A DNA stretch of 64,000 nt from a virus (IMGVR_UViG_2974499353_000001:40721-104720); one strand, 5' to 3'. Positions 3,093 to 46,358 are shown, counted from the stretch's first letter. Made by a program: numbers and translations. The notes: generated from the letters alone by a model not told the origin.

Positions 3093-3129
3093 AACGAAGT
3101 TTCATTGTGTTATGGGTATTTAGACCGGA

Positions 3130-23817: not shown

Positions 23818-26147
23818 TCCTTCTTAATCACTTCGGTCATGCCATTACGCAGACCATAACGAATGTTATGTTGGAAATATTCTTGGAACTCCTGTTCACG
23901 CTGACTGATGACAAACAGATTGTTCCCACCAAATTTATGTTTCAACATCTCGACGGATTCTTGAACCCCTCGCTCACTCATGTTTTCGAGTATCTCATCC
24001 AACACGAAGAGGTTACATTGTACAGACGCCTTCAGGTTAGCGACGTCCCGTAGGGCTAATGTCACAGCCAGATTGAGTCGGCTGCGTTGTCCTGTAGACA
24101 GGGAGAATATGCTTTGCCCTTTACGACCAGCAGCGCTCATGGTGATTTCAAATGTATCATCAACAGCAATATCCAAGAACATATTGAGTGCTTCAAGATA
24201 CTCGTTTATTTTACTATTGAGGAAAGGCAAATACAGGCTGATAATTCGAGCCTTGGTCTGATCATCTTTTAGGAAGAACAGAAGATGGTTCAGGTCTTGC
24301 AATTTCTCATCCAACTCTACGCGCCGCGCATTCAGATCTTCCATTAATGCCGTGATGCGAGCGATCTCTTCTTCCAGGGCGTCAGTTGGTGTCGGCTTAA
24401 CCGCCAATTTACGCTCTAAATCAGCAATGGATGCCTCCAGAGGGGCACGGCGTGATTTCAGGCTGGTGAGTTTATCAGCCGTGTCGTTGATACTCTTAGA
24501 GAGCTGCTCACGGGCTTGACGGATTGACGTCGTGATATCTTCGTAACGGGTGTCTACGGCCTTGAGGACGTCGTTAATTTTGGACTGTTGTTCCCGCTGT
24601 AAAGATGTTTTCTCAACAGCAGCGACATCATAGAATCCTTGGATGTCGCGTTTTAATGTAGCGATCGCCGATTCCGCTTCTCGGATTTCATTGCGCAAAG
24701 CATCCAGTTCTTTGTCAATAACCGAAATCTGAGAAGATAATTCTGAATCTCTGACATTGTAATTCTCAATCAGGGAATTCACTTCTTCTAGGGCTGTATC
24801 AACCTGAAGAATCTTGTCAGTCAGTTCACTGATTTGTGGATAATATTGACTTTCAATGCGTGATTTGGTATCGTCCGACACTAATTGCGTACACGTAGGG
24901 CAAGTGCCCATATCGTGGAAACGTTTGATGGCAGATTCATGTCCTTCCATTTCTGTTACGAATTTGATACGGAAGTTCTCACCCTGCTGACGCCGCGCTA
25001 ATGCTTTGTTCAGTTCATCCAGGTTAGCATTCCGTTGGCTAACCAGATCATTTTTACGTTCCGCGACTACCGCCATTCTCTCCCGAATTTCTTGTAATGA
25101 ACGTTCGCCATCAGACACCTCGATACGCTCATAGTCTTCAGCCTTGGTATCAGCCTCATCCTGAACCGCTTGAATTTTGGCAAAATACTCGTCATTGATG
25201 GAATCGATATCCACCTTCATTTCAGCGTTCAGGCGATTACGGACTTCTGATAATTCTGATTCCAATTTAGAGTCTTGAGCACGGGACTCTGTCAGTTGTT
25301 CCTGCACTGCGTTGATATCTGAATTCAGGCTATTCAGACGTTCCTTCTCTTGGACAAGGATATCCGCAGATTGTTGCTGGATCATCGCATTGGAATTATT
25401 GATCTGTTCCAACTGCGCTTGCTGGCCTTTTAAATTTACATCATGAAAGGCGTAATCATTGGTGACCGTCGTGAGTTCATTCGTTACTGTCTTGATAGAT
25501 GCTTTTACATCTTCATTCATCAGACTGAAGAACCCCAAATCCCAGATTGTCTCTACCATAGCGCGACGGTCGGCAGTGTACATTTCCGTGAATGGGATGA
25601 ACTTCTCTTTGCCTAGAACCAGGGAGTTCTCAAACATCTTCTGGTCTACGCCAATCAGGTTCACAATATATTTGTTCATGTCGGCTTTGGCCGCATCATT
25701 CACGACCTGCTTCCACTCACCGTCTACCATCTGATAGACTTCTACGAAATCAGGTTTGATACCACGACGGACTTTCCATTCACTTCCTCGAGTGGAGAAC
25801 TCAACTTCACCCACGCATTCCTTTTTGTTTTGGGAATTGACTAATCCGGCTTTCTTTTCTTTCTTGCTATATGTGTCATTATACAGAACGAAGAACAGCA
25901 GCCAGACAAGCATGGTGGATTTACCAGCGCCATTGTCATCGGATGTAACCAAGGTTGCCGAATTGCGTTGGTAATCAATTTCCATGAATTCATTACCGAT
26001 AGAACGGAAGTTTTTAGCGCGACCGCGATGGAAAGTCAGTTTGTGGGTAATTTCCCCACGAATTTCAAATGGTACTTCAACAGAAACAGGAGTGTCCGCT
26101 TCTTTCAACAGCGAACCAAATTTTGATAATAGGTCTACATTGTTCAT
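23814..26147 (-). CDS. 46: Recombination endonuclease subunit gp46 (SbcC/Rad50-like ATPase)
   Basis: Walker A motif DDNGAGKST, long coiled coil, zinc hook CPTC, signature LSTGQRSRL, Walker B motif LFVLDE. Confidence 0.85.
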   Translation of the reverse strand: MNNVDLLSKFGSLLKEADTPVSVEVPFEIRGEITHKLTFHRGRAKNFRSIGNEFMEIDYQRNSATLVTSDDNGAGKSTMLVWLLFFVLYNDTYSKKEKKAGLVNSQNKKECVGEVEFSTRGSEWKVRRGIKPDFVEVYQMVDGEWKQVVNDAAKADMNKYIVNLIGVDQKMFENSLVLGKEKFIPFTEMYTADRRAMVETIWDLGFFSLMNEDVKASIKTVTNELTTVTNDYAFHDVNLKGQQAQLEQINNSNAMIQQQSADILVQEKERLNSLNSDINAVQEQLTESRAQDSKLESELSEVRNRLNAEMKVDIDSINDEYFAKIQAVQDEADTKAEDYERIEVSDGERSLQEIRERMAVVAERKNDLVSQRNANLDELNKALARRQQGENFRIKFVTEMEGHESAIKRFHDMGTCPTCTQLVSDDTKSRIESQYYPQISELTDKILQVDTALEEVNSLIENYNVRDSELSSQISVIDKELDALRNEIREAESAIATLKRDIQGFYDVAAVEKTSLQREQQSKINDVLKAVDTRYEDITTSIRQAREQLSKSINDTADKLTSLKSRRAPLEASIADLERKLAVKPTPTDALEEEIARITALMEDLNARRVELDEKLQDLNHLLFFLKDDQTKARIISLYLPFLNSKINEYLEALNMFLDIAVDDTFEITMSAAGRKGQSIFSLSTGQRSRLNLAVTLALRDVANLKASVQCNLFVLDEILENMSERGVQESVEMLKHKFGGNNLFVISQREQEFQEYFQHNIRYGLRNGMTEVIKKD

Positions 26148-26149
26148 TA

Positions 26150-27265
26150 TTATGCATCCAATGTGTTCAGGCGTTGTTGGGCAGCATTATAGAATTGTTC
26201 TGCTAATTTGCAAACATTTTCAGGGCGCTGGATATTATTGGCGGCGCGGATATCTTTCTTCAGGACTTCCACAGCATCAGTCGCCACCATCTCTTCAGTG
26301 ACTTCTACCTTCTCGGAAGCAACAGTAATCGTCCGATCGATGAAGTTGTAATCGATGCATTTACAGCGCTTCAATGCGTCACAGAACTTTTCATAATGCT
26401 TGGCATTGTCACGGTTCTGTACAATCACCTTAACGATTTGCCCTTCAATACCCAAAACATTGTTTAACCAATCGGGGTCGATCCAATTACCTTCAGTATC
26501 AGAAGACATTTGGGTGTAGTCGTATTCCACGAACCGGAACAACGTTTGTTGTTCGTTGTTGGGGATAAACAATTCCCCGCCATTCATGTCGTCTACATAG
26601 AATCCTCGGTTCGTCCCGTCTTTGTGGTCTTCCCAGGTAAGGTGATAAGGAGTCCCAATATACTGAATGTTACCTTCCATCGAACGGGTATGGAAATGTC
26701 CGGTATCCACGCGCTCGAATTTCGAAAGGAGCGCCACGTCGATCTGACCTTTATCACATACAGAGGACTGGTACATTTTGAACCCTGCCAACTCCAGATG
26801 CGCAAAACAGTACTTGGCGTCTGTATCTTGTATCGCTTTAATGGACGCATCATAGTTCTCTTTGTTAATCCACGGCAGTAGGAGGGTCTTGACACCTTCA
26901 ATCATTACTTCAGTTGGTTCGCTGTAATAATGATAAACATCCGGTGCCAATTCATTAAGATAAGAAGGCCAGTTAATGCGATTGGACTCTTCTAACGTGA
27001 TATCATGGTTGCCGACGATGCCATTCCATTTAATACCTGCTTTGCGCAGCGCTGGCGTCAATTCATCTTTCAACCAATCTTTATCGCGCCCATACATGAA
27101 TTTGCGAACATCAAACGTATCACCAAATTGCCACACTTCTTTAATATCGGCGTCAACCAATTCTGGAATAAAATAATTGATGAGATAATTCTTTATGAAT
27201 TCTCGAACGTAACGGGAACCATTACGGCTCCCGATATGTAAATCGCCTATTTTAGCAATCGCCAT
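26150..27265 (-). CDS. 47: Recombination endonuclease subunit gp47 (SbcD/Mre11-like nuclease)
   Basis: Calcineurin-like phosphoesterase motifs GDLHIG, GDTFD, GNHD. Size 371 aa. Confidence 0.85.
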   Translation of the reverse strand: MAIAKIGDLHIGSRNGSRYVREFIKNYLINYFIPELVDADIKEVWQFGDTFDVRKFMYGRDKDWLKDELTPALRKAGIKWNGIVGNHDITLEESNRINWPSYLNELAPDVYHYYSEPTEVMIEGVKTLLLPWINKENYDASIKAIQDTDAKYCFAHLELAGFKMYQSSVCDKGQIDVALLSKFERVDTGHFHTRSMEGNIQYIGTPYHLTWEDHKDGTNRGFYVDDMNGGELFIPNNEQQTLFRFVEYDYTQMSSDTEGNWIDPDWLNNVLGIEGQIVKVIVQNRDNAKHYEKFCDALKRCKCIDYNFIDRTITVASEKVEVTEEMVATDAVEVLKKDIRAANNIQRPENVCKLAEQFYNAAQQRLNTLDA

Positions 27266-28058
27266 TATTTTGTTGCTCCCGTTCTAATGCTCGTTTCTTT
27301 GCTTCTTCCCAATCTGGTTCCATAGAACATATTTCGTCTTCCAGATTGAATTGAGTAGAGCCGAAGTCATAGTCTGAATTATCTTCGGCGTCGGCGGTAA
27401 TGGTATTTTCACTCTTTGTGAGACATTGAAGTATACCGCGAGGAATTTTCTTATTCTTTTCCTCTTCTTTGATGGCGATTTGCTTTTGGCGTTCCTTTTC
27501 GCGCTGTGCTTCTTTCTTAGTTTCAAAATTTCCGATACGCTCACGGAAGTCCATTGTTATACCAGTGCTGTCTACGAATGTCTGTTGCTGGAAGTCTGGG
27601 TCATCTGATAATGCAGCGAAACCACCTGCTTCTTCAAATGAACGCAACTTGATATAATTGTGTTCTTCTTCACTGGTGAGTTTCTTGGCGAATGAACGAT
27701 CGGCGCACATCGTTACCCAAGAGAAGAAATTGATTTTTCCTTTCTTGCCGATATGACTGACGTCAAATGTATGGAGGTAACGAAGGATGTTGACAACGGC
27801 CTCACTGACCATGTCTTCGCGGTATGGATAATCACGATAGTTGTAGCGCATACTCATGTTCTTAATAATCATCTGAACATTCATGGCCACATAATTGGGG
27901 ATTCTTGGTAGGGGTGTTCCTTCGGCCAAAGCCTTTTTGCGAGCCGGAATCCAATCTCTCAATATTCCAACAACACGGTCATTATCTTCGTCTGTGAAAT
28001 ATTTGGTGACGTTATCACCCCTGTCTACAAAATTCATACCCATCGTGATAATCCTCAA
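27252..28058 (-). CDS. 55: Late-transcription sigma factor gp55 homolog with a long acidic C-terminal extension
   Basis: The core is positioned like T4 gp55 (ILRDWIPARKK..., NYVAMNVQMIIKNMSMRY, AVVNILRYLHTFD). Adjacent to 47, as in T4 apart from alpha-gt. 268 aa versus about 185 aa in T4. Confidence 0.6.
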   Translation of the reverse strand: MRIITMGMNFVDRGDNVTKYFTDEDNDRVVGILRDWIPARKKALAEGTPLPRIPNYVAMNVQMIIKNMSMRYNYRDYPYREDMVSEAVVNILRYLHTFDVSHIGKKGKINFFSWVTMCADRSFAKKLTSEEEHNYIKLRSFEEAGGFAALSDDPDFQQQTFVDSTGITMDFRERIGNFETKKEAQREKERQKQIAIKEEEKNKKIPRGILQCLTKSENTITADAEDNSDYDFGSTQFNLEDEICSMEPDWEEAKKRALEREQQNNGDC

Positions 28059-28597
28059 ATACCAATGAATTCATTGAAAGAACCAACGACTTTCTTGACC
28101 GAGAAACGGTTATTTTCAAGAACCATTGAACTATCTTCTTTGGCTCTAACGCTCCACTGATCCGCAATTTCGTTGCCCATCGTTCCTGCATGACCTTTCA
28201 CCCATTTTAATTCAAGTTCACAAATTGAACAAACTTTGTCATAATAATCGAACAACTCGAGCAGAAGTTCTGTGTTCTTAGGCGGCATTCCTTCATATTC
28301 CCATTTACGACGCCACTCCAAAACGCTATTGATAACATATTGGCTGTCGGATATAATGCGGGCTGGGGGAATGCAGCGTTCACCGCAATTAGAGAATTTC
28401 CATAGGATCTTCATCGCGTTTATAACCCCGAGTAACTCAGCTATATTGTTCGTTGACGGCGGGGGTAAATACCCATAAAACACTTTCCATTGCTCTCCAG
28501 TGATTGGACTGATGGCAAATGCCCAACCAGCGGCTCGTGTCTTCTGAGGGGATGATGCCCCGTCAGTGTATATTTCAATCATGTATAAGTATCCCAA
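28055..28597 (-). CDS. rnhA: Ribonuclease HI (RnhA-type)
   Basis: Motifs IEIYTDGAS, NNIAELLGV, VKGHAGTMGNEIAD, which carry the D-E-D-D catalytic residues. The start may be the internal ATG at 28582. Confidence 0.8.
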   Translation of the reverse strand: MGYLYMIEIYTDGASSPQKTRAAGWAFAISPITGEQWKVFYGYLPPPSTNNIAELLGVINAMKILWKFSNCGERCIPPARIISDSQYVINSVLEWRRKWEYEGMPPKNTELLLELFDYYDKVCSICELELKWVKGHAGTMGNEIADQWSVRAKEDSSMVLENNRFSVKKVVGSFNEFIGI

Positions 28598-37996: not shown

Positions 37997-38314
37997 TTAT
38001 TTGCAGAGAACAACGACGAGTTCAGCTAACTCTCCGAGGGTAGGATCATCTCCATGTTTACCCACCCACTCGTCACTAATTTCTACATCGTACTCTTCTT
38101 CGATTTCCATGACCAGCTCAATCATGTCAAGATCGTCACCACCGAGATCATTCTTAACCCGTAACGGCGCTAAAGCATCGATATTATCATCAATGTTATC
38201 AAACTTGTCCTTGTGATCCCCGTTGCGCCAGGTTTCCATGTTCAGGTTGTCACAAGCGTACTGAGCCAGAACACGCATTACTTCAACATAAGTTGGTTTG
38301 TTTGACATAAGCAT
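37997..38314 (-). CDS. Acyl-carrier-protein-like protein with the phosphopantetheine-attachment Ser replaced by Asp
   Basis: DLGGDDLDMIELVMEIEEEYDVEISDE versus E. coli AcpP [27 protein letters not shown]. N-terminal extension of about 35 aa. Confidence 0.65.
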   Translation of the reverse strand: MLMSNKPTYVEVMRVLAQYACDNLNMETWRNGDHKDKFDNIDDNIDALAPLRVKNDLGGDDLDMIELVMEIEEEYDVEISDEWVGKHGDDPTLGELAELVVVLCK

Positions 38315-38327
38315 ATCTCAAAATGAA

Positions 38328-38343
38328 GGCGGGTTTCCCCGCC
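38328..38343 (-). terminator. Terminator GGCGGGTTTCCCCGCC after the vWA gene
   Basis: Hairpin immediately downstream of the stop codon. Confidence 0.55.
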
Positions 38344-38351
38344 AGTTGAAT

Positions 38352-40568
38352 TTAGATTTTGACTTCTTTTTCAGCCAGTTCGGCAGTGACGGTGTATTTC
38401 ACCCCATCAACTTCCACATCCATAGTGGATTCTTCCAAATCCAGGTCGGTAAACCAACCATGGCCTGCAACAATCCCATAAACTACCTTGGACAGCGTTT
38501 TGTTCAGGGCGCGGACTTCGTTAATGGCCGCTTTTGCTGCGTCTCCGATCCAGCTTTCAATCAGCTTTTTCTGAGTCTCTTCCGGTACGCTGGTGATCAT
38601 CGGCGATTTAACAAATGCATTGTATTCAGCCAGGGCATTAGCGATCAGCTGATCAGCGACATTCAGTTTTTTACCGTCCGTCTGTTTTTTGATAACAGAC
38701 GCGATGCTCGGCAGTGAAGATGCGCCTTTGATTTTCACATTCAATTCACGACTCATATAGACATCGGTTGATTCTACAGAAGAAGTCTTCGGTGAAAATC
38801 CATAGTCGCGAATTCCGTTTGCTGACAGGAAATCAGCTGCTTCTTTGCCATATTTTGAAGCCAGACCAGTAGCGTTGCCTTTACCAACCAGTTCATCACG
38901 GTAGAATTTCAGAACTTTCTGTTTTGCCTTCAATGCTTCACGGCGCACATTGTCTGCAAAGAATTCAGCAGCACTGATATTCTTTGTCATGGCGCGGTTA
39001 ACCATTGGGACACTTTCCAGATTTACAATGAAGACTTCCGGTCCACCAAACACATGAACACCCATGGCAGTCAAATCCTGTGCCACCTTAGCCCGAACAA
39101 TCGGAGAATCTGCAGTGATAGGCATTGTTTTCAGGTTGATGATACCATCCTTGACAATGGTGTAATTGCGATAACGCCAGGTCCCCAGCTCTTCAGGAAG
39201 TTCATATTTCTTCTGTACAAACTCAGGCACAACAACCGTTCCGTGTTGAACTGTCTGCACACTGATGTTAGGACGTTCTGAATTGTAGACCAAATTGCTG
39301 ATCGGGACAATCCCTTTATCATCTGCTGGATTGAATTCGGGGGTCCAATCTTCGTGCTCGGCCAGTTTGAGCGCCAGGGCTTTACGCTCTTCTTTAGAAG
39401 TCGCATTCGCAATCTCTTCGGCCAACTTGTCTTCGGTGTCATCAACTTTCTGTACAGTACCGCGCCCAATGCTCTTGTAAGAGAATAGCGGATGCTTGGT
39501 GACGATAGAGACATCGGCTTCGGCCAGGTAGGTCAAAACATCAACAATGGTCGTTGCATCTTCAGCCGGAACCATATTATAATCGATGCCATCAACTCCT
39601 CGCAGAGATTCGTCTACGATAGCCTGAGTCAGATCGACTTTGATGTTGGAATAGTCCTGCTTGGTGAAACAGTTGCTGTACTGTTTGATGAAGCGGACGT
39701 CACCCGTCTTCTTCAGCGCGGCCCAGACCAGATCGGCGTCCATGGTATACACGCCGTAAAATGCCAGCACGTATGCCGCTTGGATGTCTGCCAGATTATC
39801 CAGCTGGTCGATCATGTTGGGGTTTACAACCCACAGCTGAGAAACGCTTTCAGGGATGCTGACGTGGCCAATAGGGTGCTCTTCATCAGGATGCACAGCT
39901 AAAACAGTCGCCACGCCATTTTCAACATAAATGGCATGGGTATAAACCAGAGGAACATCGACTACAACTTTCGGTGAAGAAGTTTTCAGCACGTTTTCCA
40001 ATTCGGTCTGATATTCATTCTGGCCTTCGGCGAATACGTGGGTCGCACCAGAACGTTCTGCCATTAGCGCCAGCAGTTCGCGATTACAATACCAACCGTA
40101 TTCGATGAAGGTAATGTTATCAAACGCTTTGGGCAGTACTTCAGCGGCATCCAGGATTTCATTAGAACGCCAGCAGTTGTCATATCCGTCGGTCATGAAT
40201 GCCAGGTTGTTAACATAACCAGGTTTATTCAGGCTAATGGCAGTTTCCGCAGCCAGTTTCAGCGGCTCAACAAAACCAGTACAACCAGAAGGCTTCAGGA
40301 AACGGTCAATTAGATTATTGATCTCACTGAGGTCGGTTGCACTGTTAATCTGACGTCCGGCAAATACCGTTCCGAAATCACCGCGAGATGAAAAGTAAAG
40401 GATGCTCACAGTATCTTCCGGTTTCACCAGGGAAGGCAGGTTCTCCTTCAGATGCTTACGGACTTCTGGAAGTGAACGATACATGGAACCGGAGATATCC
40501 ACAACGATTACATGGTTAGACGGCGCGACGGTCGCAACCGCATTCTTAAATGTTAATGATTCAATCAT
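38352..40568 (-). CDS. Large von Willebrand factor A (vWA) domain protein (about 738 aa)
   Basis: MIDAS motif VIVVDISGSMYRS, with downstream TDG and D residues. Start at MIESL overlaps the upstream small gene (ATGATTGA). The C-terminal 500 aa are unassigned. Confidence 0.7.
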   Translation of the reverse strand: MIESLTFKNAVATVAPSNHVIVVDISGSMYRSLPEVRKHLKENLPSLVKPEDTVSILYFSSRGDFGTVFAGRQINSATDLSEINNLIDRFLKPSGCTGFVEPLKLAAETAISLNKPGYVNNLAFMTDGYDNCWRSNEILDAAEVLPKAFDNITFIEYGWYCNRELLALMAERSGATHVFAEGQNEYQTELENVLKTSSPKVVVDVPLVYTHAIYVENGVATVLAVHPDEEHPIGHVSIPESVSQLWVVNPNMIDQLDNLADIQAAYVLAFYGVYTMDADLVWAALKKTGDVRFIKQYSNCFTKQDYSNIKVDLTQAIVDESLRGVDGIDYNMVPAEDATTIVDVLTYLAEADVSIVTKHPLFSYKSIGRGTVQKVDDTEDKLAEEIANATSKEERKALALKLAEHEDWTPEFNPADDKGIVPISNLVYNSERPNISVQTVQHGTVVVPEFVQKKYELPEELGTWRYRNYTIVKDGIINLKTMPITADSPIVRAKVAQDLTAMGVHVFGGPEVFIVNLESVPMVNRAMTKNISAAEFFADNVRREALKAKQKVLKFYRDELVGKGNATGLASKYGKEAADFLSANGIRDYGFSPKTSSVESTDVYMSRELNVKIKGASSLPSIASVIKKQTDGKKLNVADQLIANALAEYNAFVKSPMITSVPEETQKKLIESWIGDAAKAAINEVRALNKTLSKVVYGIVAGHGWFTDLDLEESTMDVEVDGVKYTVTAELAEKEVKI

Positions 40569-40737
40569 CGTTTTGACCTTTTTGGGCTTTGGAGTGTTTG
40601 GAGTTCGCGTCGGCGTTCTCCAGCATAGTTTCAATGAAATCCCGGTTGTTTTCCATTTGGGCGACCAGAACATCACTGGGACGGAATGAATTGTCAAGAC
40701 AATCAAGTCCGGCGCGTTTTAATTTGTTGTCGGTCAT
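40561..40737 (-). CDS. Small acidic protein (about 58 aa), translationally coupled to the vWA gene
   Basis: ATG with SD GAGAG. The track start is a TTG. Confidence 0.4.
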   Translation of the reverse strand: MTDNKLKRAGLDCLDNSFRPSDVLVAQMENNRDFIETMLENADANSKHSKAQKGQNDD

Positions 40738-40774: not shown

Positions 40775-40825
40775 ATGGGACTATTATATTACGACAGGCG
40801 GTATTGATGCCAATTAATATAATAA
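40775..40825 (-). promoter_or_regulatory. Sigma70-like promoter TTGGCA, 16-nt spacer, TAATAT(AAT)
   Basis: Read on the minus strand, downstream of the terminator hairpin at 40825..40854. Confidence 0.45.
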
Positions 40826-40854
40826 AAATGCCCGATTGAATATAACCGGGCATT
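40825..40854 (-). terminator. Terminator AATGCCCGATTGAATATAACCGGGCATT
   Basis: Hairpin plus T run after the 40888 gene. Confidence 0.55.
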
Positions 40855-40887: not shown

Positions 40888-41760
40888 TTATTTAAAGGAG
40901 TCTACAATGGATTTGAAAATATAATCTTTGGAGCGTTGTTGTACCGGGAGTTCTCCATACGGAACCATGCAAGGGTGTTGCTTGGTCTGAGGGTCTTTGA
41001 CTGGGCCATACACCCATCCCTCAGCCTCCTTCTCCGCCATCCAGCTCTCATGCGATTCGCTGGGCTTACGATCACCAGTGAGATGGAAGATAACACCTTT
41101 GCAAGCGCTCTCACGCTGCCAGGCCGGAGATTGTTCCCAAGGCAGTTGAGAGTCGTCACCAACAGACTTGCAGTATGCGCGGTTGGCTTCATGACAAATC
41201 TTGGCGATGCGCAGAACCAATGGCGAATAAGTGAGATCGAGTTTGGAGTTGGCGCGCAGGAAATCACTAACAGCCTTACGAGATTTGGCGTTGTGAGAGT
41301 CAACAACAAGTTCCATGTCATCCGGCCCACAAACGAAAGACGCCAAGAAGCGCTCGCCATTTTCCGCTCTGAACATCACGTCCTGAATCATCACATTGAA
41401 GCCGAGGTGATAGGCCGGGCAGAGGGCGCTACGTTCAACAGCGTATTGATCGATCCGGATCTCTGCCGTTTCCGTGGCTTTGGCCAACAGATCTTGTTCA
41501 ACAAGCGCCCGGTACGCCTCCAGCTGCCACAGCTGGTCGAAGGTGTTATTGTAGGAAATCTCTTTGCCCAGGGCTTCATCGAAGTTGGCCGGGTCTATGG
41601 ATGTGCTGGGCTTGGTGCCGTGAACGACGAAGCCGTTATCCATCTTGAAATGACAAGTGATAGCCCGGTGACCGCCGACTTCGCGGTCTTCGTAAATCAC
41701 CTCAGCGATATGTGACTTCAGGACTTCAGGAGTGAGTTTGATGCCAGTACGAGTTGTCAT
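40888..41760 (-). CDS. Protein with a C-terminal RyR (ryanodine-receptor repeat) domain
   Basis: HESWMAEKEAEGWVYGPVKDPQTKQHPCMVPYGELP versus RyR HELWA..EQGWTYGPVRDD.K..HPCLV.F..LP. Confidence 0.6.
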   Translation of the reverse strand: MTTRTGIKLTPEVLKSHIAEVIYEDREVGGHRAITCHFKMDNGFVVHGTKPSTSIDPANFDEALGKEISYNNTFDQLWQLEAYRALVEQDLLAKATETAEIRIDQYAVERSALCPAYHLGFNVMIQDVMFRAENGERFLASFVCGPDDMELVVDSHNAKSRKAVSDFLRANSKLDLTYSPLVLRIAKICHEANRAYCKSVGDDSQLPWEQSPAWQRESACKGVIFHLTGDRKPSESHESWMAEKEAEGWVYGPVKDPQTKQHPCMVPYGELPVQQRSKDYIFKSIVDSFK

Positions 41761-41768
41761 GTGTTATC

Positions 41769-42143
41769 CTATGATATTTGTTTACAGACCTCCACTACTT
41801 TACGGCACATGACGATATCGAACAAGCCGATATGGCAATCGCGCTTCTTGATCCCCAGATTATGAGCCAGCCAGCTGTAAGCATCACTCCTGCTCCTCTG
41901 CCCACTTTTCCAGATAGGGTCAAACGACCTATGAGCTTCCTGCTTAGCAGCACGGAGAGCGGCATTCGCCATCCTTCCCAGAGGTTGTCTACCATCCCCA
42001 TGGGTATGGCAACCCACACGAGCGTCGCATGGCGAGCATACCCAGAACTTCAGTTTGTGTAGATCTGGGCGATGAGGGTAGAGTACATCACCACTGACGT
42101 ATTTGGCAGGAAGGCCGCAGTAATCACAGATGACAGGTTTCAT
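41769..42143 (-). CDS. Zinc-finger protein (DUF3268-like)
   Basis: CDYCGLPAKYVSG...YPHRPDL...FWVCSPCDARVGCH. Confidence 0.5.
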   Translation of the reverse strand: MKPVICDYCGLPAKYVSGDVLYPHRPDLHKLKFWVCSPCDARVGCHTHGDGRQPLGRMANAALRAAKQEAHRSFDPIWKSGQRSRSDAYSWLAHNLGIKKRDCHIGLFDIVMCRKVVEVCKQIS

Positions 42144-42158
42144 ATTCTTTGTCCAAAA

Positions 42159-42181
42159 GAAACCCCGCACACGGCGGGGTT
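42159..42181 (-). terminator. Terminator AACCCCGCACACGGCGGGGTT
   Basis: Hairpin plus T run. Confidence 0.55.
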
Positions 42182-42612: not shown

Positions 42613-44631
42613 TTAGAAAATGACTTTTACAGTACGGTTAAACGCGCCGGACACTTTGACGAACACGTGGTTGCGTTGCGTCGTCGAGAATCCCAGACCG
42701 GACAGTTGGTTTTCATTCGGCTGGACTTTCATTTTACTACCCAACATTTCAAAAACCTTACGATGTTTATCCAGTTCTGGCTTCAGATATTCGTTGTAGA
42801 AACCACGAGTACCTTCAGGATTAGCACAGCCTTCAAGAATGAAGAACACATGCTTGTTACCAGTTTGCTCCCCATCCCAATGGTTTGGTGAATTCAGGAC
42901 CAGCTGTACTTTCTGGAAGGTCGCAGTCTTGATACCCCAAACTTCTTTAGACTTATCAACATTAGCCAGTTCGGACTTAATGCCAACAACTTGTTTGTCT
43001 TTAACAGTCAGGATGACTGCAGTGATACGCCCCTGATCTTTCAGGCCAGGATGGCTGAAACGATGCGTTGCGCCTTTGTATTCTACTTCGACTTCAAACC
43101 CTTCGTCGATTTTTTCACGTTGATTGTAGTTGTGGATTTCGAAACGGTATTCACCATCGCGCAGCTTGCTTTCATCTGTAAAGATGATATTTTCCACCGG
43201 GGCGCGGTTTGGATCAATACCATCCATACCGTTCATATCGATATCCAGATGGGCACCTGTCATAGAGCGGCGATCACGGAAGTAAACGTGCTCCATGTTG
43301 TTGAACATATGCAGATCGAGGTCGTCGTTGTTGTGCCACGCCAAGGAAACGCGCAGATACCCGTCAACTTTACCACCAGCAGCCTTTACACGTTCTTTAA
43401 TGGAATCGGTCACTTCACCGTTGTAAGACCAGGAGAAACCGTTGTTCCACTTGAACAGGTTAGGCGCATCTGGGTTCGCCGGAGCAACCAGGGACATCAG
43501 GTTGCTAGTATGAGAATTCTCTACAAGCACTTCCATTGAATGCGCTTTTGGCAGAACATTGCTCAGGAAATCATCAACGCTGATCTCTTCAACTTTTTCC
43601 AGGGATTTGGTCGGAGTTTTCACTTCGGCGGCCAGCTGTGCAAACGGATCCATCGCTTTCTGAGCGGCCAGATCTGCGAACAGAACGTTGTTGATTGTCA
43701 GATCATCGTAAACCGCATAACGACGCGCCAGTGAGTCTTCCAAACCCAGAGCAATAACTTCTTTCTGAGCGTTTTCGATCATGGATTTTGAAACCAGCGC
43801 TGTCGGACGTTTGTAGTTCGCCGGAGCAACTTTGGATTCAAACGATTTAACAGCCTTTTCCAGTTCCACGCCTTCGCTGATATCTGTCAGCAGAGTGCCG
43901 ATAACTGTGTTGCGGATGCCGTGTGGAACATGATTGTTTGAACGGTATCCAGTATGCCATGCCCAAAGAGAACGGGCTGATTCGGGGACTTGTTCATATG
44001 CCTTTTTGGTTTCAACAAATCCCTTCACTGCTGCTTTGTGTTCTGCGCCGCGATACAGAGAATTCTGGTCAATCAGTTCCAGAACGATTTCAGCTGATTC
44101 CAGAGTAATTTCACGCAGACCGCGTTCAAACAATTCAATAGCCTGGCGGATTTCACCTTTTTTCGAAGCGATTGCGTCCGGACGCAGAACATAACTACCA
44201 AGTAATTGGGTATGGAAATGATTGTAAGTACGGATTTTGCCATCTTCACCAGATTCGTGATTGTGAGACAGGCCGACTTTGGCAGAATCGTTAAAATAAA
44301 CATCGACGATTGCGTGTTGTTTGACATACGCGGAAAGAGCCGCAGCCACCACGTCATATTCATTACCCAGATCAATGTTGTCCCAGATAGAAATTACGTT
44401 CAGTTCTGAATCGATGGTGACAACACCGCCGATGTTACGGATGAATTGTTTACAGCAGGTGCAATCGTGTTCAGTACGTTCGCGGTACAGCGGGTTAGTA
44501 CCAGCAGGGAAAGATGCCAGATACAGATCCCAAAGAGCATCTTTATCGATATTGGTCATGAACAGACCAGTTGCGGACATCGCCAGCACGTTGTTATTAA
44601 CTGCCGTTGCGAAGGGTTTGAATTCTGCCAT
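42613..44631 (-). CDS. Large orphan protein (672 aa)
   Basis: Long clean ORF with SD AGGAAG. CTCC cysteine motif near the N-terminus. No recognisable catalytic motif. Confidence 0.65.
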   Translation of the reverse strand: MAEFKPFATAVNNNVLAMSATGLFMTNIDKDALWDLYLASFPAGTNPLYRERTEHDCTCCKQFIRNIGGVVTIDSELNVISIWDNIDLGNEYDVVAAALSAYVKQHAIVDVYFNDSAKVGLSHNHESGEDGKIRTYNHFHTQLLGSYVLRPDAIASKKGEIRQAIELFERGLREITLESAEIVLELIDQNSLYRGAEHKAAVKGFVETKKAYEQVPESARSLWAWHTGYRSNNHVPHGIRNTVIGTLLTDISEGVELEKAVKSFESKVAPANYKRPTALVSKSMIENAQKEVIALGLEDSLARRYAVYDDLTINNVLFADLAAQKAMDPFAQLAAEVKTPTKSLEKVEEISVDDFLSNVLPKAHSMEVLVENSHTSNLMSLVAPANPDAPNLFKWNNGFSWSYNGEVTDSIKERVKAAGGKVDGYLRVSLAWHNNDDLDLHMFNNMEHVYFRDRRSMTGAHLDIDMNGMDGIDPNRAPVENIIFTDESKLRDGEYRFEIHNYNQREKIDEGFEVEVEYKGATHRFSHPGLKDQGRITAVILTVKDKQVVGIKSELANVDKSKEVWGIKTATFQKVQLVLNSPNHWDGEQTGNKHVFFILEGCANPEGTRGFYNEYLKPELDKHRKVFEMLGSKMKVQPNENQLSGLGFSTTQRNHVFVKVSGAFNRTVKVIF

Positions 44632-44727: not shown

Positions 44728-45135
44728 TTAAACGGGAATCATGTTTACTCGAATACTTCTGAACCGTTTCCCGTCATAACTGGTGTAACCAACAACCGTA
44801 ACTGATCTTGTTCCCTTTGGATAACCCTTTGGAGTACTCACAACGCGCACAGGGCGCTTGCTTTCTTTATCGTATTTCGAAATCAATTTCAAAAGATGTT
44901 TATCGATCTGGCTTAAACTATCACCATACACGGTATATTGATATTGCTCGCAATTACCCAACAAAATGATAAATTTATAAATTTTGTCGACCAAAGATCG
45001 ACATTTTGGATCATCATAATGATGCCGACAGACTTGACATTCATATTTCCCAGTATTCATGTTGAACAATTTTGTTGCCCGACTTGAACACGCTGGGCAT
45101 ACTTTCCATGAACGATGATGTTTTACGGGTTTCAT
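44728..45135 (-). CDS. Zinc-ribbon protein (135 aa)
   Basis: CPACS...CQVCRHH motif. Confidence 0.45.
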   Translation of the reverse strand: MKPVKHHRSWKVCPACSSRATKLFNMNTGKYECQVCRHHYDDPKCRSLVDKIYKFIILLGNCEQYQYTVYGDSLSQIDKHLLKLISKYDKESKRPVRVVSTPKGYPKGTRSVTVVGYTSYDGKRFRSIRVNMIPV

Positions 45136-46358
45136 TTTTTCATCTTCTCTAACAGATTAATAGAACGAACGGGAGTCTTCTGTAATGGCTGATTAACTTC
45201 ACCACCATTATACCCCACCTTTCCTCGAGGTTTCTCCCCGCGCATCACCGCCTCAACGCAGCGGGTATATTTCTGAAGTTCACAGAACATGTTCTCCAAC
45301 TGCATAACATTCATGCAACGGTCTTCCGGTTCTTCTGCCGACCAAAATTCATTACGTTTATACCCGTACTGAGCGAACAATTGATCTTGATGATCACGAA
45401 CCCAGAATATGCATTCTTCATGCGTCATGCCGTCCTTGTCCAAAAATAACAGATCGATACCAGCACGGCAACCTGGACCAGCGATAGTGAAGTGGTTTTC
45501 ACTGAATGGATATTCATCGATGTATGTAAAATCAACCCAAATCTGGTATGCCAAGAATGGTCCAAGCCCCTCAATGTCGTCATACATCGCCTGGTAAACA
45601 GAGTCGGGACGGCTAAATTCCCTGAGGCGATCAAAGTAATGAGGGTGTTTGTTGACGAATGCCTTCAAAGATCGGATGACTCGCATCGGCATGTATGGTT
45701 CCCAGCCTTCTATTTTGTATTCACCAGGATTATCTTCGGCCAGCTTCTTGGCAACCTTGTAATCCATTTCATCTATAACACCGCCAACCCGATGGACTTT
45801 TACCTTCATGCCGCCAAAGCGTTGCTCCTTGTGGTTGACAACTAGTTCAGGGAAAGCCAGGCATTGTTTCAGACCGCCTGTATTAAACGCATTGGTGAAA
45901 ACTTTGCCACCTTTAGATTCGAATTCCTGAAGAACATCTCGACACCATTCAAGATTTATGTTTCCGAATTCTTCGATCGTCCATGGACCACCCAAAGCCT
46001 GTATAGGTTCCCACATGTTGTACATGCGGAACAATACACAGTTGAACATTTTGTCAGATAGCGTGAGATCCTGATCGAGGATGATATTATTGATCAAATT
46101 TCGAGACTGCCTATCGTGCTCTCTCCGCACGTTACAAAACTTGACTTGGCGTAATACCGGATTATCCGTCCATGGCGCTGGAAGGCATTGCACGTCCTTC
46201 TTGACATGTATCGCATAACGATCCCTCATCCATTCATATGCCAGCTGGCGGTGGAATGAACTTAACATAGGATGGGCTGATTTGATTTTGGTTTCACGGA
46301 CACCGCAATATGGGATGTCATGTGGTTTATCTTTCATGGTATCCTCTCTAGAATACAA
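45132..46358 (-). CDS. Orphan protein (408 aa)
   Basis: Clean ORF. Cys/His-rich. No motif assigned. Confidence 0.55.
   Translation of the reverse strand: MYSREDTMKDKPHDIPYCGVRETKIKSAHPMLSSFHRQLAYEWMRDRYAIHVKKDVQCLPAPWTDNPVLRQVKFCNVRREHDRQSRNLINNIILDQDLTLSDKMFNCVLFRMYNMWEPIQALGGPWTIEEFGNINLEWCRDVLQEFESKGGKVFTNAFNTGGLKQCLAFPELVVNHKEQRFGGMKVKVHRVGGVIDEMDYKVAKKLAEDNPGEYKIEGWEPYMPMRVIRSLKAFVNKHPHYFDRLREFSRPDSVYQAMYDDIEGLGPFLAYQIWVDFTYIDEYPFSENHFTIAGPGCRAGIDLLFLDKDGMTHEECIFWVRDHQDQLFAQYGYKRNEFWSAEEPEDRCMNVMQLENMFCELQKYTRCVEAVMRGEKPRGKVGYNGGEVNQPLQKTPVRSINLLEKMKK

Follow-up and report, generated by a model that had tools for sequence, protein, structure and literature searches.

What does a large phage protein with a von Willebrand factor A (vWA) domain do when no ATPase is encoded beside it? 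We addressed this question for a locus at positions 38352..40737 (minus strand) of a 64,000-nucleotide stretch of viral DNA, IMGVR_UViG_2974499353_000001:40721-104720, hereafter the window. The locus encodes a 738-aa (amino acid) vWA protein and, overlapping its start, a 58-aa open reading frame (ORF). [quoted passage not shown] Our analysis indicates that the N-terminal third of the protein belongs with ArnB, vWA2 and Sec23/24, and that it is followed by a large conserved module found only in this family.

The vWA protein and its MIDAS

The sequence of the locus was 100% identical to positions 79072-81457 of MH370371 (Salmonella phage S118; Kuttervirus, Ackermannviridae), and more than 100 other Kuttervirus genomes matched it at 95% identity or higher. 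Annotators have labelled the large gene either 'hypothetical protein' or 'VWA domain-containing protein', and the vWA call itself is thus not new. The 738-aa frame runs from 40568 to 38355 with its stop codon at 38352..38354. We placed the start at an ATG internal to a longer TTG-started ORF, because the homologs, 700-770 aa long, align from residue 1. The parts of the gene are as follows:

38352..40568, minus strand: vWA protein gene, 738 codons plus stop (PHROG 2426)
39984..40568, minus strand: vWA (Rossmann-like) domain with an N-terminal strand, residues 1-195
40485..40499, minus strand: MIDAS residues D24-x-S26-x-S28, within the vWA domain
40278..40280, minus strand: MIDAS residue T97, within the vWA domain
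40185..40193, minus strand: T126-D127-G128 of the MIDAS, within the vWA domain
39822..39983, minus strand: predicted beta-sandwich after the vWA domain, residues 196-249, as in ArnB, vWA2, 4FX5, ITIH and Sec23/24; the least conserved segment
39609..39821, minus strand: predicted five-helix segment, residues 250-320, placed where ArnB has its C-terminal helical bundle (PMC6509490), with a conserved NCFTKQDYS
38355..39608, minus strand: family-specific C-terminal module, residues 321-738, with predicted long beta-hairpins and long helices 533-561 and 663-701

The Pfam model PF00092 matched residues 20-182 with 31.2 bits against a cut-off of 23.8, and the domain showed the Rossmann-like alpha/beta fold of the vWA superfamily. 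D24, S26, S28, T97 and D127 were invariant in an alignment of 50 sequences with identities down to 34%. Among full-length family members, 242 of 247 carried both DxSxS and [ST]DG, and four of the five exceptions were N-terminally truncated gene calls. The assignment of a MIDAS to the N-terminus of the protein was therefore confirmed.

Fold beyond the vWA domain

The AlphaFold2 model of the whole protein was confident (pLDDT of 87.1, pTM of 0.68), as was a second model of residues 196-738 (pLDDT of 88.3, pTM of 0.77). In the former, an N-terminal strand and the vWA domain are followed by strands at residues 200-248 and by five helices at residues 250-318. The beta-sandwich is contiguous with the vWA domain and packed on it, as in proteins of the ArnB/vWA2/4FX5 type. 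Comparison with folds in the PDB gave alignments over 252-299 residues with vWA2 (5A8J) and Sec24/Sec23, as opposed to only 167-177 residues with isolated vWA domains. By sequence profile, the best PDB match was ArnB (E-value of 7.5e-5), and the MIDAS motifs of the two proteins were aligned. The models thus show that residues 1 to ~250 share the arrangement of ArnB, vWA2 and Sec23/24. The equivalence of helices 250-320 with the helical bundle of ArnB was only partly supported.

The C-terminal module contains the conserved motifs RPNIS, RNYTIVKDGI, KQKVLKFYR, GIRDYGFSPK and ESTDFYMSKELNVKIKGLSSLP. Its segment 531-701 is conserved and basic, with an isoelectric point (pI) of 9.5, within an otherwise acidic protein. 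Conservation of the module equalled that of the vWA domain in places and was at least that of the beta-sandwich and the helical linker. The C-terminal 515 residues gave no Pfam match even at E<=1, profile searches with the C-terminal part returned no PDB entry at a threshold as loose as E<=10, and Foldseek against BFVD returned only members of the same family. NCBIfam and PADLOC added nothing past generic vWA matches, and neither a signal peptide nor a hydrophobic segment was present in the 738-aa protein. Since none of these searches added anything for residues ~321-738, we conclude that the last ~420 residues form a predicted compact, conserved module of high model confidence with no detectable relative outside the family. 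The region left unassigned in the preliminary description therefore remains without a Pfam family, except that its first part is a beta-sandwich of the ArnB type. The suggestion of a new arrangement held as well: the fusion of a vWA/beta-sandwich module to a 420-aa module without relatives has not been described before, and the breadth of the family is also new.

Absence of a dedicated ATPase

The annotation of the whole genome of the near-identical phage kage lists no MoxR/CobS-type ATPase, and Pfam scans of ten large hypothetical kage proteins revealed none. Within 10 kb of the vWA gene, the T4-type clamp loader is the sole AAA+ protein. The kage genome has a single phosphatase, the Ser/Thr phosphatase kage_148, ~65 kb away, and no linked Ser/Thr kinase and PP2C phosphatase genes of the TerY/TerF type neighbour the vWA gene.

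The neighbourhoods of related genes were sampled at 73 loci, 10 kb on each side, in 32 groups at 60% identity. Around ~37 divergent loci, the P-loop neighbours were helicases, clamp loaders, PhoH, polynucleotide kinase and RecA; a single marginal bpMoxR match lay 6 kb away at one of these loci. No dedicated AAA+ protein accompanies the family as a whole, and no neighbour was conserved outside Ackermannviridae across the 73 loci. The earlier observation that a MoxR/CobS-like or kinase/phosphatase partner is lacking nearby was accordingly upheld and extends to the relatives.

The premise behind it, that vWA proteins normally work with such partners, proved too narrow: ArnB/vWA2/4FX5, ITIH, Sec23/24, p44/Ssl1 and Rpn10 operate without a dedicated ATPase. 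Because the closest relatives by sequence and fold do so, the absence of an ATPase is, by analogy, what would be expected for the ArnB/Sec23-24 subtype of vWA proteins, and it gives no sign of a partner that is missing or supplied by the host.

A viral family of large myoviruses

A profile of the C-terminal part retrieved 1,372 cluster representatives at E<=1e-3 and 883 at E<=1e-30 (clusters at 50% identity). In the best 150 matches, the module always lay at about residue 200-250 of a 700-820-aa protein, and the architecture was uniform over more than 1,000 sequence clusters. Short members were considered as proof of a free-standing C-terminal module and discarded, as the one checked was truncated at a contig end; the longest members carried no extra Pfam domain.

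Of 50,697 phage records, 502 (about 1%) carry the family at full length. These isolates belong to Ackermannviridae, Slopekvirus (Matisse/KP15-like), RB43-like Straboviridae, Shewanella phage Thanatos-1, Morganella phage Mm5, Rhizobium Kleczkowskaviridae and the Bacillus jumbo phages PBS1/AR9, and IMG/VR contributes jumbo phage contigs of 230-450 kb. The family is nearly confined to large myoviruses, infecting Proteobacteria and Firmicutes. Even distant homologs were colinear over the full length and kept the MIDAS, such as those of PBS1 (749 aa, 26% identity) and Rhizobium phage TM30 (751 aa, 23% identity). Large phages used or proposed against Salmonella, E. coli O157 and Klebsiella (Kuttervirus, Slopekvirus) are among the carriers. 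In the literature, no functional study of the family was found.

Cellular copies were limited to seven loci in 185,579 species genomes of bacteria and archaea, and the family is therefore essentially viral. No conserved MoxR neighbour occurred at the cellular loci. The copy in Novimethylophilus kurashikiensis (L082, 225-kb contig) has HlyD/OEP efflux genes within a few kb and so is chromosomal, perhaps in a prophage remnant. That in Achromobacter anxifer (L086, 487-kb contig) has RCC1-repeat and MYG1-exonuclease genes on its flanks, along with small P-loop proteins.

The overlapping 58-aa ORF and a putative transcription unit

The vWA gene sits among T4-type replication genes on the same strand of the window. 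Around it, the following features were recognized:

40561..40737, minus strand: 58-aa mildly acidic ORF (PHROG 11447), its stop overlapping the vWA start by 8 nt (ATGATTGA)
40786..40813, minus strand: promoter-like site of the sigma-70 type (TTGGCA-16-TAATAT), 49 nt before the 58-aa ORF (consensus match only)
40827..40854, minus strand: terminator-like hairpin, 11-bp stem then a T run, which would end the preceding gene 40888..41760 and isolate the two-gene unit
38328..38343, minus strand: terminator-like GC hairpin, GGCGGGGAAACCCGCC then TTCATTTT, 9 nt past the vWA stop and before the acyl carrier protein gene

With a terminator-like and a sigma-70-like site in front of them and a GC hairpin with a T run behind, the 58-aa ORF and the vWA gene look like a transcription unit of their own, to judge from these consensus matches.

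The 58-aa ORF matched PHROGs 11447 and 8656. Its 3' end, GAT GAT TGA, shares 8 nt with the ATG ATT GA of the vWA gene. This overlap was kept in 17 of the 18 relatives that have the small ORF, while the peptide sequence has strongly diverged; this marks the small ORF as a real gene and makes its translational coupling to the vWA gene plausible. The coupling proposed in the preliminary description can thus stand. The acidity ascribed to the product was, however, only mild (pI of 4.9, 11 Asp and Glu vs 8 Lys and Arg), and its terminal Asp-Asp is forced by the overlap with the Met-Ile of the vWA gene. The ORF was found at 18 of the 73 related loci, only in Kuttervirus-like (closest) relatives, and hence is no core partner. 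In Kuttervirus-like phages, it could be a lineage-specific accessory, possibly a regulator or ligand, outside the core mechanism.

Expression timing and virion status

Presence of the protein in the virion was judged from the literature and annotation only. Mass spectrometry of virions of the Kuttervirus Sajous1 yielded one spectrum for the vWA protein, compared to 196-311 for genuine virion components (PMC10892097). The homolog in LIMEstone1 is not labelled structural and that in AR9 is not marked as virion, and in both records such labels derive from mass spectrometry.

The AR9 homolog, g068, reached 0.96, 105.6 and 431.5 fragments per kilobase per million (FPKM) at 5, 20 and 40 min, respectively, and has its own mapped promoter for the non-virion RNA polymerase (nvRNAP) 30 nt upstream (PMC5312081, with Tables S3 and S4). 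Its level at 20 min was 24% of that at 40 min, nearer to the UvsX-like and DnaB-like genes than to the capsid and sheath genes (1-2%).

In the kage genome (L005), the motif CTAAATA(c/t)c occurs 25-45 nt before start codons in upstream regions of structural genes, and CTAAATA appears to be the late-promoter element of this phage. The window contains CTAAATA at 3117, 18230, 18826, 22494, 23081, 23275, 52181, 60713 and 61931; none lies between 23281 and 52181, and so none near the vWA gene. The T4 late-promoter consensus TATAAATA was also tried and was not enriched. On the basis of the Sajous1 spectrum, the AR9 kinetics, the replication-gene context and the absence of CTAAATA, the vWA protein is most likely a non-virion product made from the replication period onward; for Kuttervirus, we infer this timing.

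Proposed role and alternatives

We tentatively propose, at somewhat less than even probability, that the protein is a soluble, non-virion, ATP-independent and metal-dependent intracellular adaptor or scaffold. Capture of an acidic side chain by a MIDAS is established for integrins and midasin and has been proposed for ArnB. In the phage protein, the MIDAS Mg2+ would capture the side chain of an Asp or Glu in a protein ligand, and the C-terminal module, including the basic conserved segment 531-701, would bind a second target. Because the family occurs in phages of both Gram-positive and Gram-negative hosts, a range of conservation that implies a common target, this second target would be phage-encoded or universal among bacteria. 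From the DNA-replication period onward, the protein would in this way keep a complex tethered or sequestered.

A more far-reaching possibility, which we regard as unlikely, is that the C-terminal 420 residues form a new fold that holds the real activity of the protein, which would act either as an enzyme or by capturing a universal complex, bacterial or phage, with high affinity; the family would then constitute a new and widespread class of AAA+-independent vWA effectors in large phages. If so, it would be a viral counterpart of the ArnB and Sec23/24 adaptors, with MIDAS capture rewiring a host complex or a replisome or assembly complex during the replication phase.

Several points weigh against the adaptor proposal. 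The role is deduced from the fold class. The invariant polar residues R432, N434, N468, D474, K551, D602 and S617 of the C-terminal module would also fit an active site, and a structural relative of this module may exist among unsolved proteins. The timing in Kuttervirus was deduced indirectly, and the sigma-70-like promoter is no more than a match to the consensus. In addition, the promoter of the AR9 homolog is classed as 'late' (PMC5312081), which would also suit a role in morphogenesis.

The active-site argument leads to an improbable alternative, in which the C-terminal module is an enzyme of new fold that the vWA/MIDAS module only targets or regulates. The many invariant polar residues of this module, its long near-invariant motifs across homologs of 23-35% identity, and a conservation equal to or above that of the beta-sandwich and helical linker would agree with catalysis. 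However, we recognized no catalytic motif and no match to an enzyme family or fold. Clusters of Cys and His are likewise lacking, as the module has no cysteine and only five histidines, and there is no conserved metabolic neighbour, the adjacency to thymidine-hypermodification genes being limited to Ackermannviridae.

It also seems rather doubtful that the protein hijacks a host ATPase of the MoxR class (e.g. RavA in enterobacteria), replacing the vWA partner of the host. In bacteria, many vWA proteins serve MoxR ATPases as clients or adaptors, and such an ATPase is absent from the phage's own genes as far as the kage annotation and the ten-protein Pfam scan reach; the ArnB/Sec23-24 type of fold, on the other hand, calls for no host-supplied partner.

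We give a similarly small chance to a role in morphogenesis, or to a protein that is packaged or present in virions at low copy number. Transcription of the AR9 homolog starts at its 'late' nvRNAP promoter and is silent at 5 min, one spectrum was obtained from Sajous1 virions, two Klebsiella phage records bear the label 'minor tail protein' (by automatic annotation), and the family is restricted to large myoviruses. Set against this, the single spectrum contrasts with the 196-311 of genuine components, the homologs are not marked as virion (AR9) or structural (LIMEstone1), the 20-min to 40-min ratio of 24% resembles that of UvsX-like and DnaB-like genes and not the 1-2% of capsid and sheath genes, and the gene has replication genes as its neighbours here and no CTAAATA late motif near it.

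The reading of the protein as a CobT-like or chelatase-type vWA subunit, served by an ATPase of the CobS/BchI type from elsewhere, is effectively refuted. The preliminary description had given a CobT homolog with a CobS gene elsewhere in the genome as an example of what would overturn its proposal. Tailed viruses commonly carry cobST pairs (PMC8651126) and the phage protein has an intact MIDAS, but neither a CobT or CobT_C match nor a CobS was found.

The adaptor or scaffold proposal remains the one we favour. With the N-terminal third placed in the ATPase-independent class of ArnB and Sec23/24, it is the ligands of the MIDAS that should be looked for, and not a missing ATPase. The 420-residue module, which is well predicted and has no relative among solved structures, is a good target for structural and biochemical work. 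Our findings on this family contradict nothing in current understanding.

Neighbouring genes

Nine neighbours were searched with jackhmmer as candidate family-wide partners, including the 58-aa ORF, the acyl carrier protein, a 672-aa protein, the gp49/RyR protein, DUF3268 and HMUDK_hel. Each was present at only 9-22 loci, essentially in Ackermannviridae (the acyl carrier protein gene at 21, the 672-aa protein at 22), and all were rejected. 'Conserved neighbours' that emerged from an all-against-all BLAST of the ORFs of the 73 loci were antisense ORFs inside the vWA gene and thus artefacts. In Slopekvirus phage Matisse, the vWA homolog lies within a run of small ORFs of unknown function.

Immediately downstream of the vWA gene, past the terminator-like hairpin, the gene at 37997..38314 (minus strand) specifies a PP-binding acyl carrier protein of PHROG 4154, which adjoins the vWA gene only in Ackermannviridae; we noticed no gene for an acyl or phosphopantetheinyl transferase in its vicinity. 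On its upstream side, the vWA unit directly adjoins the gene at 40888..41760 (minus strand), with a terminator-like hairpin between them; this gene encodes a 290-aa protein with an N-terminal N4 gp49/Sf6 gp66 domain (PF13876) and a C-terminal RyR domain (PF02026). DUF3268 follows at 41769..42170 (minus strand). The 672-aa protein (42613..44631, minus strand) had no Pfam, NCBIfam, PADLOC or PDB-sequence match and occurs in 559 phage records, from Ackermannviridae, phiCbK-like Caulobacter phages, Ralstonia phage RSL1, Bacillus phage BCP78, and Vibrio and Microcystis phages. A few records label it 'putative DNA-directed RNA polymerase' with no visible support. It was dismissed as a partner on account of its differing phage distribution (phiCbK-like, RSL1, BCP78 and Vibrio phages).

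A 135-aa protein at 44728..45135 (minus strand) showed weak matches to SprT/IS1595 Zn-ribbons. Together with DUF3268, likewise a small Zn-ribbon protein, it was weighed as a candidate ArnA-like Zn-finger partner for the ArnB-like module. A Zn-ribbon gene stands directly upstream of the vWA homolog at four divergent loci (L039, L050, L074 and L075). An ArnA-like Zn-ribbon partner was not enriched, however, with 3.5% within 1.5 kb compared to a background of 2.7%.

The gene at 45132..46337 (minus strand), 4.5 kb upstream of the vWA gene, matched PF18723, the helical domain of 5-hydroxymethyldeoxyuridine (5-hmdU) DNA kinase, with an E-value of 1.6e-83. In the kage genome (L007), the Pfam scans of large hypothetical proteins also brought out an amino acid:DNA transferase ADDT (PF18724) and a 5-hmdU DNA kinase 2, HMUD2 (PF18747), at 25401..26636 and 27393..28298. 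ViI-like phages are known for hypermodified thymidine, and these genes are consistent with that. A link between the vWA protein and thymidine hypermodification was rejected, since the adjacency is specific to Ackermannviridae and the family is also found in Slopekvirus, RB43-like and Rhizobium phages.

Directly upstream of one metagenomic vWA homolog (L042 5255..9844, plus strand) is a gene for a 1,529-aa RecD2-type helicase with intein and LAGLIDADG endonuclease insertions. As regards defence or anti-defence, the vWA protein had no PADLOC match and no relevant paper was found.

Comparison with known vWA systems

The closest known systems include ArnB and vWA2 (ArnE) of Sulfolobus acidocaldarius and Caci_2163 of Catenulispora acidiphila (PDB 8S05, 5A8J and 4FX5). 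In the structures of this group, the vWA domain is inserted in an eight-stranded beta-sandwich, which is followed by a helical bundle, and the same core has been noted for Sec23/24, E. coli YfbK and the WAV3 ligases (PMC6509490; PMC12852372). The phage protein shares only 11-18% sequence identity with these three proteins. Its beta-sandwich has one predicted N-terminal strand as opposed to two in the ArnB type, and its helices match the ArnB bundle only partially. ArnB stops after the bundle at ~380 aa, whereas the phage protein continues for ~420 residues. Furthermore, the ArnB system involves the Zn-finger/FHA partner ArnA and eukaryotic-type kinases, neither of which was found for the phage protein.

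The Sec23/Sec24 core of COPII and ITIH (PDB 1M2V, 2NUP, 3EH2 and 6FPY) are also among the closest systems. They are eukaryotic coat or secreted proteins, and the phage protein lacks both a Zn finger and a gelsolin domain. When the model was compared without its vWA domain, Sec23/24 and ITIH were absent from the top 60 matches. For the stand-alone vWA scaffolds TFIIH p44/Ssl1, Rpn10 and INTS14, only the vWA domain could be aligned (171-205 residues), and the remainder was unrelated.

CobT-CobS, BchD/ChlD-BchI, NorD-NorQ, ViaA-RavA and MoxR-vWA pairs, some of them phage-encoded (PMC8651126), have a MIDAS-containing vWA domain in common with the phage protein. In the CobT/BchD/NorD/ViaA class, however, the vWA domain is C-terminal and accompanied by CobT, CobT_C or an N-terminal AAA domain of ChlD, while the phage protein matched only vWA models of Pfam, at its N-terminus. 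AR9 encodes an AAA ATPase, g028, beside a zincin-protease-vWA fusion, g029, in addition to the homolog g068, and the g028-g029 pair had already reached 77-88 FPKM at 5 min, with kinetics different from those of g068 (PMC5312081, Table S4). The stand-alone and ATPase-coupled types therefore coexist in AR9 as different proteins.

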